64,000 bases of DNA from Puniceicoccaceae bacterium (GTDB taxonomy: Bacteria > Verrucomicrobiota > Verrucomicrobiia > Opitutales > Oceanipulchritudinaceae): assembly GCA_040830765.1 (NCBI GenBank), contig JBFOMH010000005.1, positions 256,001 to 320,000 on the forward strand, read 5' to 3'. How positions within the stretch are numbered: position 1 is the first letter of the stretch; every line of letters begins with the position of its first letter. Positions 7,921 through 51,209 of the stretch are shown here, in pieces. Position numbers and translations under genes: made by a program. The notes under the pieces are model-generated. The model ran no database searches. It saw nothing but the letters and a program-made list of their open reading frames with translations, and had not been told where the DNA came from.

Positions 7921-8211
7921 ATGAACGACAAAAGCCCCATAGTCTACATTAAGCCGGGTTGTCCATGGTGCCGTGAAGCACTGGCTTTCTTTTCCGAACA
8001 TGGCGTTCCTCTGGAAATCCGTGATGTTAACTCCGAGCCCCAGAGCATGCAACGCATGGTCGAAATCAGCGGCCAGTCCAAGACACCTACCTTCGAGTTT
8101 GGGGAATTTATTGTCGCCGACTTTGACGTCCAGGAGTTCCTCGACGCCCTTGAGCAGGTTCCCGAAATCAAACAGCAACTTGGTTTCGGCGATAGCGAGG
8201 ACTGGAACTAA
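7921..8211 (+). CDS. Glutaredoxin/NrdH-like redoxin
   Basis: CPWC active site; 'SGQSKTP' cis-Pro region. Confidence 0.9.
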
Positions 8212-9599
8212 AACTCCGCATTGCCCGGAGTTCGGGCAAAGGGGATGACGTCCCGGATGTTGGCCACACCCGTGACAAACATCAGCATTCGCTCAAATCC
8301 AAGCCCGAAGCCGGAGTGCGGGGCCGTGCCATAGCGTCGCAAATCCCGGTACCACCAATACTCCTCCTTCGACAAGTCGTGGTGCTCGAGTGCGGCATCC
8401 AGGCGCTCCAGACGCTCCTCACGCTGACTGCCCCCGATTATTTCACCTATTCCCGGAACCAGCACGTCCATGGCGGCAACGGTCTTGTCATCATCATTCT
8501 GGCGCATGTAGAAGGGCTTGATCTCCTTCGGGTAATTGAAAACGGTGACCGGGCGCTGAAAGTGGGTTTCCGTCAGCCAGCGCTCATGCTCACTCTGGAG
8601 ATTGGCCCCATATTCCACCGGGTAGTCGAATTTGACATCCGCTGTTTTCAGCAACTCTACCGCATCGGTATAACTGATGCGCTCAAAGGGCCGTTCCAGC
8701 ACGAACCGCAGGCGTTCATGAAGGCCCTTGTCGACGAATTTGCCGAACATCTCCAGGTCCTCCTGACAATGCTCAAGGATATCCCCGATGAGGTACTTGA
8801 TGAAATCCTCCGCCAAGCCCATGTCGCCTTGCAAATCGCAAAAGGCCATTTCCGGCTCAATCATCCAGAACTCGCTGGCATGACGGGAAGTGTTGGAATT
8901 TTCCGCCCGAAAAGTGGGGCCGAAGGTATAGACATTGCTGTGCGATAAGGCGAATATCTCCGCCTCCAGCTGGCCACTGACCGTCAAGTAGGTTGGCCGG
9001 CCGAAGAAATCCTTTTCATAATCAATGTTCCCGTCCTCGTCCCGTGGCGGATTGCCCGGTTCCAAGGTGGAAACGCGGAACATTTCACCGGCCCCTTCAC
9101 AGTCGCTCGCCGTGATCAACGGCGTGTGCACATAAACGAATCCACGTTCCTGAAAGAACTGGTGCACCGCATAGGAGAGCCGTGAACGAACCCGGAATAC
9201 CGCCCCAAACAGGTTTGCCCGAGGCCGTAGGTGCGCGATCTCACGCATGTACTCCAGCGAGTGACGCTTCTTCTGCAGGGGATAACTCTCCTCCGCCTGT
9301 CCGATCAGCTCCAGCTCAGTGGCCTTGATCTCCCAGCGTTGGCCCTTCCCCTGGCTCTCCACAAGCTCCCCGGCCATCCGCACAGCTGAACCAGTCGTGA
9401 AGGCGTGGATGTTATCATACCCGGGACACCCTTCATCGGCAATTACCTGCAAATTCGCCAGGGAACTGCCGTCGTTTAATTCAATAAAGGAAAAGCCCTT
9501 CGAATCCCGCCGGGTCCGTACCCAGCCATACACTTCTACCGCATCGATCGGTCCGTCGGATTCCAGGGCTTCTTTTACTCTCAGTCTTTGCAAGCTCAT
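8208..9599 (-). CDS. asnS: Asparagine--tRNA ligase
   Basis: OB-fold 'GWVRTRR', 'YLTVSGQL', '[21 protein letters not shown]', 'GFGLGFER'. Confidence 0.98.
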
Positions 9600-9641
9600 A
9601 AGTTGCTCCTACTCCTACATCCCCGGCAGCTTCCATAAAGC

Positions 9642-9684
9642 AAAAAAACAAAAAGGCCCTGCTCCCCAAAGGGAACAGGACCTT
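9642..9684 (-). terminator. Intrinsic terminator closing the large ncRNA unit
   Basis: Minus strand reads AAGGUCCUGUUCCC-UUUG-GGGAGCAGGGCCUU followed by a U-rich tail. Confidence 0.85.
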
Positions 9685-10553
9685 AAAATGTGGGACGGCG
9701 CTCGCCACACGCTCTTTCCCGGTTGCTGACATTTGGCGCTCGTGATTCTTCATCATGGCTGCCAGCTCCCCGACGCTATTCTCCGAGGCACTTCGGAGTC
9801 CCGGCCTCGTAGCAGGGCCGTAGATGGAATTACTCCCATCTAATTCAAGAGTGAGGCCTCTCAGCATGGTCACCCCACAGGTGCTACCTGCGGACCTTCC
9901 TTACCCGCCGAGGATATCGCTGTAATCCGGTATCCTCCGCGATTCTTCCCAAGGTCGGCTCCACTGTCTCCAGCGGACGTTTGCCTTGAGTTACGGGTCT
10001 GACCTCTTACCTCTCGGGGATGCGTTCAGTTTACAGGCAGTCGACTCGGTTTTTCGAGCCCACTGCTTCTCGAAGGAAACCTGCGGCTGTTGTCATGTAC
10101 TCGGCCGCCTGTTTCCCCGCTTACCAAGACGTTTTCGCTGCACCGACGTTTTTCCGGTCGCTTATGGTGAGATTAGCCCTCACCCGCCTCGCCAAACGGA
10201 CGAACTGCACGGTAACATCCCTTGACCTTCCAGGTCACCGCGTTGAAGTCTCCCAGGGCACAACCCCTTCGGATCCTTCTAACTCAACCTGCTGGCATTG
10301 TGCTTGGCCTCGCTCTCGCTCGGCCGCCAGCCGATCGCCGGTCGTGTGCTTTCACAATTCAGGGCTGTGTGACCAACCCTGGCACCGACGGTGAAATTTG
10401 CCTCACTTCCTGGAGCCTTTAGTGGACGTCTCCTCAGAGCCGCCCGACTCCCCTCCATGAGGAGCCAGATTCGTTCGATAAACCTGACTGTTCCCCGGTT
10501 ACCCGGGATTATCCTGGGGCTTTCGAGTTGAATGCCCGTTCTTTCAAAGAACT
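9685..10553 (-). ncRNA. Large (~870 nt) highly structured non-coding RNA, candidate MISL-class RNA or a new giant RNA
   Basis: No credible ORF. Consecutive hairpins include 9781-9798, 9802-9820, 9821-9842 (GUAA loop), 9875-9893, 9910-9937, 9960-9977 (GAGA loop), 10075-10116, 10166-10184, 10360-10381 and 10494-10507 (GUAA loop). Has its own promoter and terminator. Family identity is inferred only from size and likely phylum. Confidence 0.8.
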
Positions 10554-10559
10554 GACCAT

Positions 10560-10589
10560 ATTGTGCTCTTCAGGGGTCCCGACTGTCAA
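10560..10589 (-). promoter_or_regulatory. Sigma70-type promoter for the large ncRNA
   Basis: Minus strand TTGACA (10589-10584), 18-nt spacer, CACAAT (10565-10560); boxA-like GTTCTTTGAAA follows a few nt downstream. Confidence 0.65.
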
Positions 10590-10602
10590 CCCTAAAACAT
10601 TC

Positions 10603-10752
10603 GTTATCAACGTTTTGTGAACAATCAAAGGTTATTGACACTCGCTTTTTACAACCTGTTCGTAAGTCCCTCATTTGGATGGCGATACACACCGGAGCCA
10701 ATGTGAATAACTTCGCTTTTTCTGTGAGTTAGTGTGAACAACTCGGGAATAA
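10603..10752. promoter_or_regulatory. Cluster of DnaA-box-like 9-mers plus an IHF consensus site
   Basis: TGTGAATAA at 10702-10710 is a perfect TTWTNCACA match on the minus strand. One-mismatch boxes: TGTGAACAA at 10616 and 10733, TTATTGACA at 10632. TATCAACGTTTTG at 10605-10617 matches WATCAANNNNTTR. Confidence 0.5.
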
Positions 10753-10828
10753 CGAATTTCCGGAAATTTTTTTTTGAAAAAAAACGCTCCTGCTGGCGGA
10801 AAAAAGTGAGTGAAAAACCGCTACAAGC

Positions 10829-11824
10829 TCAGGGATTGGCCTCGAGGTCCTGATCGAGAGCCTCCCGGATGGCATTGACCTCAATGGCAATGGCCTGAAC
10901 GAGCTGTATTTGCTCATAGAAAGAGGCTTCCTGTTCCGGATTCTGAAAGAGGACCCGCTGTTCACGGGGATTGTAGGACCAAGTTCCCCAGGCCTCACGG
11001 AGGACGTTGAGGGCGGCAATGGCGGAGCCAAGCAGGCGAACCTCGAGCTGCCGCAGGTCATAGACGCGGGATCGCTCCCAGAATTGGAGCACGCGTTCCA
11101 TTTCGGCAATGGCGATACGGTCGGCCGGGGGTTGCAGGTCCAGAGACTCGATTGAGCGCGTATAAGTATCCTCGAAGGACTCGATGAACTGGGTGAAGGC
11201 CCGGGTCTGTTCATAGAGCACCCTGTGGGCAGCCAATTCGACTTCCAGTTGGTCGATGGTCCGAAACCGAATCCACGATTCGGGGCCTTTGGTGGGATTG
11301 GCCTCCATGGCGGCGGCATAGGCTTCGGACTGGGCATCCAAGGCCTCGCGCATTTGCTGGTCCAGCTGCCGCAGGGCATCCAAGGTATCATACGGGATTC
11401 TGCCCTCATACTGGACAAAACGGTCCGTCTGGCCCCGCTGCTCCCGCTCGGCCCTCTCGGCGGCCCTTCGTTCCTCCTCGGCCTTGGCGAGGCGAAGCCG
11501 TTGCAATCTCAACTGTTCACGGGAGTCCTGTATGGCCTCCTGCCGGGCGCTATCCCGGTCGGCCTGGTTCTCGCGGGCAAGTATCAATGGAAAGATTAGA
11601 AGACAGCCCGCCAATCCGACAATCGCCCAAGAGATGAGGACCGGATCCCGGGCAAAAAGCCAGCGGGCGATCAGATTCAGGCAAATCCCCGTGGCGGTAA
11701 TCGCCACTGGCCAGACCAGATGAAAGAGAGTCCCCTGCAGCCATGGGACATCGGGATACCATCCGGTCAGCAGGTAGTATCCCAGCCCCATCAAGACGCA
11801 AACAATTGCCAGAATTAGCCTCAT
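10829..11824 (-). CDS. Hypothetical membrane protein (3 N-terminal TM helices + coiled/helical domain)
   Basis: 331-aa ORF whose start overlaps the tatD stop (ATGA coupling). Confidence 0.75.
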   Translation of the reverse strand: MRLILAIVCVLMGLGYYLLTGWYPDVPWLQGTLFHLVWPVAITATGICLNLIARWLFARDPVLISWAIVGLAGCLLIFPLILARENQADRDSARQEAIQDSREQLRLQRLRLAKAEEERRAAERAEREQRGQTDRFVQYEGRIPYDTLDALRQLDQQMREALDAQSEAYAAAMEANPTKGPESWIRFRTIDQLEVELAAHRVLYEQTRAFTQFIESFEDTYTRSIESLDLQPPADRIAIAEMERVLQFWERSRVYDLRQLEVRLLGSAIAALNVLREAWGTWSYNPREQRVLFQNPEQEASFYEQIQLVQAIAIEVNAIREALDQDLEANP

Positions 11825-12627
11825 GCCGGTTCCAAGCCGTAGAACTGAAGGGCGTTCCGTGTCGTGATTCGAGCCAAATCCTCCATGCTGATGCCGAACA
11901 GTTCGGCTGCAAAACGGCCGATGTGGGCCACGTTGGCGGGCTCATTCGGCTGGCCCCTCATTGGTTCCGGGGTCAGGTAAGGCGAATCCGTTTCCAGCAT
12001 GAGTCTTTCCAGTCCCTGTTCCAGGGCAGCTTGGCGAATGGGCTCCGCGGAGGCATTCTTATAGGTCAGGATACCGGTGAAGGAAGCCCGTCCACCGCGG
12101 CTGTTGATTTCGCGGACCAGTTCGGGCCCGTCAGTAAAGCAGTGAAAGACAACCCGCTGCCAATCCACTCCGCTCTGGTCAATCAGGCGGATGCATTCCT
12201 TGACGGCATTGCGCGAATGAATGACCACCGGACAGTCCAATTGGTAGGCAAGCGTCAACTGGTCCTTAAAAACACGTTCCTGCAGGGCCTTCAGCTCGGC
12301 AGCTTCATCGGGATACTTGGGCATGTGAAAGTGGTCCAGTCCAATTTCGCCAAGGGCGACTGGTTGAGGGTCGGTCCCGAAATAGGTCGGGATGGCCTTT
12401 ATCTGCTCTCCCCAGTCGTCATCAATGTCGCAGGGATGAATACCAACCGTCCAGTCGACCCGGCCGCTCTCGCGAGCCGTGAGACGATAATAAGTTTCCC
12501 AGTCCTTCTGGCTCGTTCCCACGGTAATGCAGCGGTGGACTCCAGCGGCCTGCATCCGCTCCAGCACAGCTTCCCCTTCTCCCCGGGTAAGTGCCTTTTC
12601 CAAGTGACAATGGGTATCGATCAGCAT
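11821..12627 (-). CDS. tatD: TatD family hydrolase/DNase
   Basis: 'DTHCHL', 'GIHP', 'GEIGLD', 'VVIHSR', 'HCF', 'ETDSPYL'. Confidence 0.95.
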   Translation of the reverse strand: MLIDTHCHLEKALTRGEGEAVLERMQAAGVHRCITVGTSQKDWETYYRLTARESGRVDWTVGIHPCDIDDDWGEQIKAIPTYFGTDPQPVALGEIGLDHFHMPKYPDEAAELKALQERVFKDQLTLAYQLDCPVVIHSRNAVKECIRLIDQSGVDWQRVVFHCFTDGPELVREINSRGGRASFTGILTYKNASAEPIRQAALEQGLERLMLETDSPYLTPEPMRGQPNEPANVAHIGRFAAELFGISMEDLARITTRNALQFYGLEPA

Positions 12628-27460: not shown

Positions 27461-28633
27461 ATGAGTGGGAACGCTAAAAACGACACGGCCGTCGCGTCCG
27501 TGGCGGCATACCGTGACAAGTTGGAATCGCTCCGGGAGCAGGTTCTGGCGGATGCCGTAATGATTGGGGAAATCCCGGCCCCGACCTTTGAGGAAGATCG
27601 CCTCGTCAACTTCCTTAGCGACCGTTTTACCGAGGAAGGCCTGGATCAAGTCACCGTGGACGAGGTCCATAACGTGACGGCTATCCTGCCCGGAAAAACG
27701 GGTGCAAAGAACATTCTTGTCGCCGCCCATATTGACCGGGTCTGGGATGCCTCCATCGACCACACCATCACGGTCACCTCCGACAGCCTGATCGGTCCGG
27801 GAATAGCAGATAACGCTCTCGGAGTAGCCTCCCTTCCAATGTTGCCCGTAATGCTGCAAGTCCTTGGTATTGAGTTAGATGCCAACCTCGTCCTCCTGGG
27901 TGCCAGCCGAAGTCTGGGTCGCGGGGATTTGGAAGGCCTGCGCTTTTTCACCGACAATGTCCCCATGACCATCGGGGCGGGGGTTTGTGTTGAAGGGGTG
28001 CAGCTGGGACGGCTCAGCTATTCCTCACTGGGAATGAACCGCTGCGAGATAAATGTCAGCACGCCGGAGGAGCAGCATTGGGAGTCGTGGAGCCTTTCCG
28101 GGGCCATCATAACCCTCAACAAGATTGTCCAGCAGATCCTCGCCATCAAGATTCCGGTTGTTCCCAAGACCTCCATTATTCTCGGGTCCATTTTCTCGGG
28201 CAGCTCCTTCAATGTTCCCTCCACCCGGGCCACCCTGCGATTTGAAGTACGCAGCGAGGAACCCGGCATGGTGGCAAGTATCCGGGAGCAGATTGAGGAG
28301 CTGATCGAGATGACCATCGCCGAGCAGCGGGTGGACGTCTCGCTGGAAGTGCTGGCGCGACGCAAGCCCGGTTCCATCGGGTTTGATCATCCTTATGTCA
28401 GGGCCGCAAGGGATATCCTCAAGGGCCTCGACATCGATCCACTGGTTGCCCCTTCGATTAGTGAACTCTCTGTTCTTATTGAAAAAGGCATCCCCTCCAT
28501 GACACTCGGCCTGACACATGGGGACCGGAAACACCAACTCGATGAATCTGTCCAGATTGCCCCTTTGTTCAAAGGTCTGGCGCAACTGGTGGCCGTTCTT
28601 CAATCCATCGACCAACTTCTCGAAAATGAATAA
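27461..28633 (+). CDS. M20/M25/M40-fold peptidase-like protein, possibly catalytically degenerate
   Basis: 'AHID', 'GPGIADN', dimerisation domain 'SFNVP', C-terminal His; the expected 'EE' motif is replaced in 'SRSLGRGDL'. Confidence 0.8.
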   Translation: MSGNAKNDTAVASVAAYRDKLESLREQVLADAVMIGEIPAPTFEEDRLVNFLSDRFTEEGLDQVTVDEVHNVTAILPGKTGAKNILVAAHIDRVWDASIDHTITVTSDSLIGPGIADNALGVASLPMLPVMLQVLGIELDANLVLLGASRSLGRGDLEGLRFFTDNVPMTIGAGVCVEGVQLGRLSYSSLGMNRCEINVSTPEEQHWESWSLSGAIITLNKIVQQILAIKIPVVPKTSIILGSIFSGSSFNVPSTRATLRFEVRSEEPGMVASIREQIEELIEMTIAEQRVDVSLEVLARRKPGSIGFDHPYVRAARDILKGLDIDPLVAPSISELSVLIEKGIPSMTLGLTHGDRKHQLDESVQIAPLFKGLAQLVAVLQSIDQLLENE

Positions 28634-50136: not shown

Positions 50137-50176
50137 GTATTTTGGTTAGATTAAAAGTTAGTCACAGAATAAATTA

Positions 50177-51073
50177 CTAATAGGCGGCCTCATGCAGGGC
50201 ATCAGAATCGGCCGATGTCTTCATCACTGCAGCTGAGCCAGAGTCGATAACGGCAGAATCCCTGAGAGTGAAACTTCCGTCATACCAACCAGCAAATGTT
50301 GTATAGTACTGGGCAGTGAATAATGGAGTCAAGGACCCCTCAGAGTAAATCGAAACCAATGTGCCATCTGCAGGACTGGGGAATGTTTCGACCAATGTTT
50401 GGCCGCTTACCGGCTCCAGAGTTCCAATAATGTTGATGATGTTTGAACCCGCATATGGACTCAGGATCGCATTGTCGATGACGGATCCATAGAAGACTGC
50501 CTCCCTGGAAACAGTGCTATTCATCACGACGCCTTCACCCGGAAAAATAATCAAGTCATCCTGAAGGGCAAATGCACCGTCATACCAACCGTTGAACGCA
50601 GTATAGTACTGCGCGGTAATTGTTGTCCCGTCCGTGTTGTAAACTGAGACCAAGTCGCCGTCCTGAACGTTAACAAAGTTACCGAAATCGGCCAAGGTCA
50701 CATGCTCCCTAATACTGACCATGTCAGAAGCGGCCAACCCAGTGACTTCAAATTCCAAAGTAACGCTATCGACTGTCGAGGAAACAATAGAGACCACCGT
50801 TCCGGATCCCGTTCCTGAAAGAACGTGCAGGTATGCTTGAGCAGGGAGTGTTGGCAGGCCTGTCAAATCAACAACCGCCCCTGAAACCGAATCAACTGAC
50901 CCTTGGTAGGCAACTTGCTTGAGGAATGGGACAGAGACCAATTGGGGACCGGCAGGGATTGTAAAGGAAGAGGCCCCAACCACTGGGGTTGTCGCAGCCG
51001 AAGTCGAAAGACAGGATAAGAGAAGCGAAACGAGGCAGCAATTTCGTATGTGAGACCAATTCATAACAAACAT
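50177..51073 (-). CDS. Secreted TIGR02597-like Verrucomicrobia protein
   Basis: Signal peptide, 'TTPVVG', 'IIFPGEG', internal duplication; located next to a PEP-CTERM gene. Confidence 0.6.
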   Translation of the reverse strand: MFVMNWSHIRNCCLVSLLLSCLSTSAATTPVVGASSFTIPAGPQLVSVPFLKQVAYQGSVDSVSGAVVDLTGLPTLPAQAYLHVLSGTGSGTVVSIVSSTVDSVTLEFEVTGLAASDMVSIREHVTLADFGNFVNVQDGDLVSVYNTDGTTITAQYYTAFNGWYDGAFALQDDLIIFPGEGVVMNSTVSREAVFYGSVIDNAILSPYAGSNIINIIGTLEPVSGQTLVETFPSPADGTLVSIYSEGSLTPLFTAQYYTTFAGWYDGSFTLRDSAVIDSGSAAVMKTSADSDALHEAAY

Positions 51074-51209
51074 AATTTTTGCTGAATAGGACCCGTACTG
51101 TAAAGGGTATTTTCTGTTTAATACGCCTATTTATAAGGATTTTACGGCCTTGCGGGGGCTAGGTGAACCGCCTAGTCGGATTCCCTGCGCAGAACCTTAA
51201 CTGGTTGTA

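Follow-up and report, generated by a model that had tools for sequence, protein, structure and literature searches.

The minus strand at 9697–10514 of the window (the whole stretch of 64,000 nt that was analysed) carries a full-length member of the MISL RNA family, an assignment that we regard as close to certain. MISL RNA (RF03079) was the single Rfam match in the whole window; cmscan scored it at 338.4 bits against a cut-off of 274.6 (E = 1.8e-100) and covered the model end to end, positions 1–751, without truncation. Since no rival family came near its cut-off and the genome carries one MISL copy, this match makes the locus a new copy of a large, folded verrucomicrobial RNA already on record, not a new class. 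A preliminary description of the locus, which had proposed the Rfam search, left the choice between a MISL-class RNA and an undescribed giant RNA. The first option is borne out, and the second is ruled out by the full-length match, a strong MISL hit being what that description itself held would remove the novelty.

RF03079 is typed as 'Gene; sRNA' in Rfam. Relaxing the search to E values up to 10 added six weak matches to other families, all far below their cut-offs. Neither ROOL nor GOLLD matched at the gathering cut-off or at E up to 10, nor did OLE RNA (for which a linked partner-protein gene was also absent) or the T-box at E up to 10, and there was no Rfam core match to group I or group II introns, no exon context and no intron-encoded protein. 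A suspected resemblance to a TPP riboswitch or T-loop was without Rfam support at E up to 10, and identity with RNase P, SRP, 6S or tmRNA was rejected because each is a separate gene in the same genome. Short motifs in MISL that we took to look like 23S rRNA prompted a BLAST comparison with the unmasked part of the organism's own 23S, and derivation from it was dismissed (best E 1.1).

MISL was reportedly first described in Weinberg et al. 2017, and the supplement to the original description may already show some pseudoknots. The name occurs 0 times in the main text of PMC5737381. The sole paper naming the RNA that we found in largely open-access literature is Ribonanza (PMC10925082), where MISL serves as chemical-mapping input; the same search found no functional study of MISL. 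Compared with the RF03079 model, one segment of the window copy is longer, at 44 nt instead of 18, and there is an extra insertion of ~20 nt. The model in turn leaves the 5′ boxA hairpin and the variable leader out, stops short of the segment that can close the last domain at the 3′ end, and draws no pseudoknots in its structure line; lying outside it are the 5′ boxA, phased DnaA-type boxes and four to seven loop pairings. The locus and its surroundings comprise the following features:

9697–10514, minus strand: MISL RNA core (cmscan, RF03079 positions 1–751)
9642–10553, minus strand: predicted whole transcript, ~910 nt (promoter and terminator scan, depth in bins 9601–10600)
10560–10589, minus strand: sigma-70-type promoter TTGACA-18-CACAAT (promoter scan)
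10538–10552, minus strand: rrn-type boxA (10552–10542) in a short hairpin, outside the Rfam model (match to rrn leaders)
10515–10537, minus strand: leader segment of variable length (homologue comparison)
9690–9696, minus strand: conserved, (nearly) invariant 3′ segment past the Rfam end (alignment A1, helix 26)
9642–9684, minus strand: intrinsic terminator, a 14-pair stem (9684–9653) with a U tail
8208–9599, minus strand: neighbouring gene asnS, a class II aminoacyl-tRNA synthetase (Pfam)
10829–11824, minus strand: neighbouring upstream gene for a 331-aa protein without a Pfam family, overlapping the tatD stop
11821–12627: TatD (Pfam)
10602–10820, no strand assigned: cluster of DnaA-type boxes (motif search)
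10616–10624, 10632–10640, 10702–10710 (exact consensus) and 10733–10741: DnaA-type boxes
10773–10781 and 10809–10817: weak DnaA-type boxes

The RNA lies in the largest gap of the window by codon-usage gene calling (9600–10828). The preliminary description had called this the sole large protein-free gap, rightly, as the other gap longer than 1 kb (50137–51209) holds a 298-aa ORF. Its naming of asnS and tatD as flanks agrees with Pfam, with the 331-aa ORF sitting between the gap and tatD. That protein has N-terminal hydrophobic segments and look-alikes that are all hypothetical, and its gene adjoins MISL only among close kin, in 8 of 113 loci. Elsewhere in the window, the 298-aa ORF (50177–51073, minus strand) is unusual in its codon usage, contains a repeat with 41-nt copies spaced 300 nt from each other and lies upstream of a secreted-looking 204-aa ORF, the two possibly forming a surface-protein pair. 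A 658-nt gap at 27860–28517 is without a called gene, repeats or an Rfam match.

The promoter-like site is present at 10589–10560 as previously described, with 10/12 consensus matches, and from its −10 element we place the transcript start near 10553. Taken alone the site is weak, since the promoter scan turned up 2 of this kind where shuffled sequence gave 0.8. Its spacing to the 5′ element is kept in Opitutales homologues, and the −10 element has A in 71% and T in 79% of 92 homologues. The strong terminator of the preliminary description is likewise there, and 82 of 91 homologues have a terminator-like hairpin followed by a U-run. Counted from the 5′ element up to where the Rfam model starts, the whole leader measures 38 nt here and 38–158 nt in homologues; at the other end of the core, the segment at 9690–9696 could close the last domain of MISL.

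Folding distinguishes the two strands, the minus strand reaching −402.8 kcal/mol (z −9.2) and the plus strand −336.1 kcal/mol (z −4.4; 20 shuffles each), and the sense strand was the better folded in 19 of 23 homologues (every fourth of 92 sampled). The three minus-strand hairpins quoted earlier all exist, and together with the RNA's own promoter and terminator and the MISL match, the minus-strand fold upholds the proposal of a leftward, stand-alone structured RNA of ~0.9 kb. The covariation check on homologues that had been proposed gave a matching answer: in 21 Opitutales sequences, two-sided change was seen at 107 of the 163 pairs predicted (0 of 500 shuffles were as high), and 94.4% of cells were paired against 79.6% when shuffled and 37–44% when slid, a contrast inflated by the structure having been derived from the same alignment. 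Folding of MISL into more than 20 covarying helices is thus well supported by the alignment. The region is non-coding. All five ORFs scored in or overlapping the gap came out as non-coding by codon usage, of 3247 indels just 573 have a length divisible by 3, so that MISL has no reading frame, and the commonest shared stop occurs in 28 of 92 homologues; no ORF is conserved, a conserved translated ORF being what the preliminary description had named as grounds for abandoning its proposal. Expanded MISL variants with a core of ~870–990 nt occur at loci L022, L024, L026, L098, L117 and L118, some of them below the Rfam cut-off, and the L022 variant has a large insertion mid-molecule.

Expression was assessed in 4 of 24 listed public runs (X1, X3, X10 and X23). 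In X1, a metatranscriptome in which 36,414 of 727,366 contig records map on the stretch, summed depth was 1.6–2.2 million over 9801–10600, compared with 0–99 in the flanking genes and 0 over 10601–11600. In X3, the RNA status of which is guessed, the exact MISL contig had a depth of 5717 against 6.6–42 for the exact flank contigs listed. Depth was restricted to bins 9601–10600. Run X10 yielded relatives' contigs only, and because these cover MISL there its flank contrast is invalid; the raw-read run X23 gave 0 reads and carries no weight either way. As depth summed over contigs is an overcount, blind to strand and to transcript ends, we claim only that MISL is enriched at least 100-fold, a conclusion supported by these runs, with the strand-blind jump in depth falling within the span bounded by the promoter and terminator, where the preliminary description had predicted a transcript.

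Transcription does not appear to stop entirely at the terminator. Exact contigs at 8995–9712 and 9346–9722 cross it at low depth, the terminator tail ends 42 nt from the asnS start and a promoter scan of those 42 nt found no promoter. Read-through from MISL is therefore the simplest source of asnS mRNA, and asnS is probably fed by it. The preliminary description had held MISL to be independent of asnS and separated from it by the terminator. The independence stands for MISL, since downstream genes differ between lineages; the separation does not, given the probable read-through. Independence would thus be one-way, MISL having no need of asnS and asnS probably relying on the MISL leak. The short spacing, the bridging contigs and the presence of asnS after MISL in 10 genus-level loci could also be read as signs of a giant cis-regulatory leader, or attenuator, of asnS. 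This we consider extremely improbable, because other lineages have other genes downstream, some of them convergent, a methyltransferase-like ORF intervenes between MISL and asnS in one locus (L011), a T-box match is lacking and the contigs bridging into asnS have less than 1% of MISL depth in X3.

At its 5′ end MISL carries an rrn-type boxA, a predicted NusB–S10 site. The 11-nt word there recurs, identical, behind the rrn promoter in the leaders of 4/4 Opitutales genomes, and a 5′ GUUC-N-UUG-N-N-AG hairpin stands just past the promoter in 24/24 Opitutales loci with an intact 5′ flank. In a wider set, 90 distinct segments match the 5′ element (one of them mis-picked) and 7 loci do not, comprising 4 that are variant by eye, 2 viral contigs and 1 with a replaced 5′ end. 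Eight genomes have both MISL and rrn boxes, which agree at 11/11 positions in 2, 10/11 in 3 and 9/11 in 3. A T-to-A change is common to the rrn leader and the MISL box in 2/2 genomes of a Limisphaerales-type clade; the MISL box is off the rrn word at 2/11 positions in 3/3 Opitutaceae-type genomes and at 1/11 in genome G060. One such deviation may be explained by a structural constraint, the box loop pairing with 10395–10392, and in two rrn operons (L028 and L029) the word pairs with a downstream complement in much the same way. MISL and Opitutales rrn leaders thus share the word, but the MISL box lies at about +2 rather than roughly +17 or further, is closed by a local hairpin and shows 1–2 deviations in several lineages. 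The boxA of B. subtilis to which NusB binds (PMC13753749) is nearly identical to the MISL word. The genome encodes NusB, and Rho-domain proteins are present. A Rho profile was discarded as a correlate of MISL, since 60/61 genomes are positive and the domain also matches a second protein; most relatives have two proteins with a Rho RNA-binding domain, of ~380–440 aa and ~560–920 aa.

An rRNA-type boxA, a very high level and a leading-strand location would also suit an rRNA mimic that serves as a decoy or sink, buffering Nus factors, ribosomal proteins, ribosomes or tRNA as growth changes, and so would the genes next to MISL in some lineages, namely bipA, hrpB, rho or a synthetase. This explanation is nevertheless improbable in our judgement: comparison with the unmasked part of the 23S gave no significant likeness, 900 conserved nucleotides are hard to justify for a decoy and the neighbours are accounted for by synteny within families.

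Upstream of the promoter lie the DnaA-type boxes, counted as such when within one mismatch of the DnaA consensus in the 300 bp upstream of MISL. The six boxes here are tied for the densest cluster in the genome. Across loci the mean is 3.4 boxes against 0.33 in shuffles, with two or more in 84 of 92, and the boxes recur with about 10.5-bp phasing at fixed positions relative to the RNA start. An OmpR/PhoB-type factor, which we presume to use 11-bp direct-repeat sites, would be an alternative reader of them. A single box of the TTATTCAC(A/C) type lies 18–34 nt before the dnaA start in 5/5 genomes (L171–L175) and is likely to be the Verrucomicrobiota DnaA box; such a position fits DnaA autoregulation as reviewed in PMC8203912. 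A search for papers on DnaA boxes in Verrucomicrobia found nothing relevant. The upstream boxes match this consensus of the organism's own and are accordingly predicted DnaA sites.

The density and phasing of the boxes would be expected, too, if the main function were exercised by the DNA, as oriC or a datA-like site titrating DnaA, with the RNA a passenger. We hold this to be very improbable. GC skew does not switch at the locus but stays negative to its left and right, a better origin candidate exists on another contig, box positions are fixed with respect to the start of the RNA, and selection acts on the RNA structure itself; the locus as oriC was rejected on the first of these grounds. 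MISL lies on the leading strand. The other candidate oriC is a second six-box cluster of DnaA type (G000:C4:163200–163500) near the cumulative GC-skew minimum (169,720). It precedes what looks like an ATP synthase operon. The dnaA gene is on contig C17, away from the C4 candidate, and contig C19 also has a V-shaped skew.

Mutual information, computed on a set of 92 distinct homologues without L026 and L079, revealed pairings missing from the RF03079 structure line, all on the minus strand:

5′ box loop with 10395–10392: pairing a (mutual information)
10477–10473 with 10205–10201: pairing b, long-range, 86–92 of 92 paired per position, with compensatory changes
10372–10368 with 10356–10352: pseudoknot c, local, 83–92 of 92 paired
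10301–10297 with 10264–10260: candidate pairing d (92 homologues)
10220–10218 with 10019–10017: candidate pairing e, register uncertain (92 homologues)
10036–10031 with 9925–9920: pairing f, long-range, 82–90 of 92 paired
loop 9814–9810 with 9778–9774: candidate pseudoknot g, 92/92 paired at 5/5 positions, with few changes

The summed scores of b, c, e and f (1.6–2.1) were on a par with ordinary helices, those of d, a and g were 0.5–0.9, and most other candidate runs fell below 0.3. In alignment A1, two-sided change was seen in 4/5 pairs of b, 3/5 of c and 3/6 of f, and e was paired in only 65% of cells. The fourth pair of a was A-U, U-A, U-G or C-G in 87 of the 92 homologues (88 paired in all), and g adjoins the invariant GCGUCGGG block. 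Taken together, the 33 pseudoknot pairs were paired in 93.0% of A1 cells against 83.5% shuffled, with 18 two-sided against 10.0 in shuffles, a test that is not independent as A1 is a subset of the 92 homologues. Under a rough tree-aware null no individual pseudoknot pair passed (best E 1.2). With support at the helix level and no single pair past that null, we consider four pseudoknots likely and three further ones possible. Intra- and intermolecular pairs are indistinguishable by covariation. A 5′-to-3′ closing helix predicted by RNAalifold was rejected, its two outer positions being paired in only 62 and 74 of the 92 and the helix competing with pseudoknot g. By eye, the 5′ box could pair with the U-rich stretch preceding the terminator.

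MISL is patchy, single-copy and chromosomal. Of 61 related genomes searched with the model, 26 have it, 21 of them with scores above the cut-off; among the 49 near-complete ones the number is 23. A 3′-domain pattern matched all 26 model-positive genomes and two others (G020 and G036), which look like chance matches since a reversed control matches at a similar rate; at L002 this pattern lies at two contig ends (G057:C61 and C38), reflecting a duplicate or an assembly break. Within the near-complete set, genomes with MISL are larger than those without (median 3.9 vs 2.7 Mb) and 1 of 23 carriers compared with 11 of 26 non-carriers is ≤2.5 Mb, in comparisons where kin are not independent. A species-genome scan recovered at least 120 MISL loci, with 119 of 120 among the matches listed fitting the profile, and 18 of the 19 loci scored with Rfam (16 genomic, 3 viral) passed its cut-off. 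The titles among the matches listed are mostly Opitutales, Limisphaerales and other Verrucomicrobiota, and the few other taxon labels, whose MISL copies are 70–96% like Verrucomicrobiota ones, are probably mislabelled or contaminated. In a phylum sample, scored at 4 candidates per genome, MISL was present in at least 9 of 151 genomes, probably an undercount. Searches of 50,697 phage and 72,556 plasmid records gave no match. Three IMG/VR contigs (L038, L039 and L040) match MISL, without the 5′ element or truncated, and join it to unrelated ORFs, in one of the contigs an RNA-virus polymerase and capsid region; all three are probably assembly chimeras produced by the abundance of MISL in metatranscriptomes. 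Neighbouring genes vary by lineage, being hrpB and bipA, a cysK-like gene and rho, or asnS, and no reverse transcriptase or transposase is among the commonest annotated neighbour families. The MISL locus showed no intron-like or mobile features and, among the joints listed, no precise excision joint.

Conservation and context bear on two further readings. Among 786 well-filled columns 125 are ≥97% conserved, several such blocks are unpaired, as protein-binding sites would be, and MISL is a single-copy chromosomal gene, all of which would fit the RNA subunit of a dedicated ribonucleoprotein resembling OLE, monomeric or dimeric and acting, for example, at the membrane or in a stress response. 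Yet no partner gene travels along: the commonest neighbour family is found at 21 of 113 loci, neighbours in general vary with lineage, and Ro60/TROVE, rejected as a partner, occurs in 2/61 genomes compared with 26/61 for MISL. We judge this reading somewhat unlikely. Decidedly unlikely is a trans-acting ribozyme or ligand-binding RNA with the invariant 3′ blocks and pseudoknots as its active site. The size and complexity of MISL speak for it, as does the gathering of invariant blocks in the 3′ half, and large bacterial RNAs are often catalytic (PMC5737381). Against it, even at E up to 10 there is no Rfam ribozyme or intron family, and MISL has one copy per genome without exon context, without a precise excision joint among those listed and without a reverse transcriptase or transposase among the commonest annotated neighbour families; the genes for RNase P, SRP, 6S and tmRNA are separate.

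The reading that we favour, tentatively and by analogy, is that MISL may act as a structural RNA particle, an oligomer or scaffold like ROOL, GOLLD or OLE, with rRNA-like and DnaA-linked control. Of the roles floated in the preliminary description, a ribozyme or an RNA scaffold, the evidence thus leans towards a structural one. MISL parallels ROOL and GOLLD in its size, loop–loop contacts, abundance and probable dispensability and in having no linked protein gene; like MISL, they have many helices with pseudoknots or kissing loops. A kissing loop of ROOL, initially recognised from covariation, turned out to bridge separate molecules, and ROOL, though abundant, is not essential (10.1101/2024.12.08.627333). 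ROOL and GOLLD are RNA-only nanocages; they are also linked to phages or prophages and lie near tRNAs, whereas MISL is without phage or plasmid matches and the 64,000-nt window has no tRNA genes. OLE is a large ornate chromosomal RNA that forms a dimer and binds proteins; MISL differs in having no Rfam match to it and no conserved adjacent partner gene.

For the structural particle, expression would begin at the sigma-70-type promoter, which would drive an untranslated RNA of ~910 nt ending at the intrinsic terminator. DnaA on the phased upstream boxes may tune this promoter and so couple output to replication state. NusB–S10 would load on the 5′ boxA as on pre-rRNA and could shield the long ribosome-free RNA from Rho, the boxA later being buried through pairing into folded MISL. 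Loop–loop pairings would tie the covarying helices together, and the RNA, as contig depth supports, accumulates to a very high level. The resulting particle might hold or sequester other macromolecules, useful yet dispensable, while a small terminator leak would express asnS. A narrower version, in which MISL would be a chromosomal RNA-only cage or scaffold made like rRNA through boxA antitermination, dosed by DnaA and joined by loop–loop contacts, we consider unlikely.

These data add to MISL its likely transcript ends beyond the Rfam model, NusB and DnaA as candidate control proteins, and long-range pairings. The RNA appears abundant enough to be purified and would make a ready target for cryo-EM. 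How common cages are among large bacterial RNAs is left open in the ROOL/GOLLD paper (10.1101/2024.12.08.627333). Were MISL to form such a cage under DnaA control, many members of a bacterial phylum would have an RNA compartment that the host itself encodes and links to its cell cycle.
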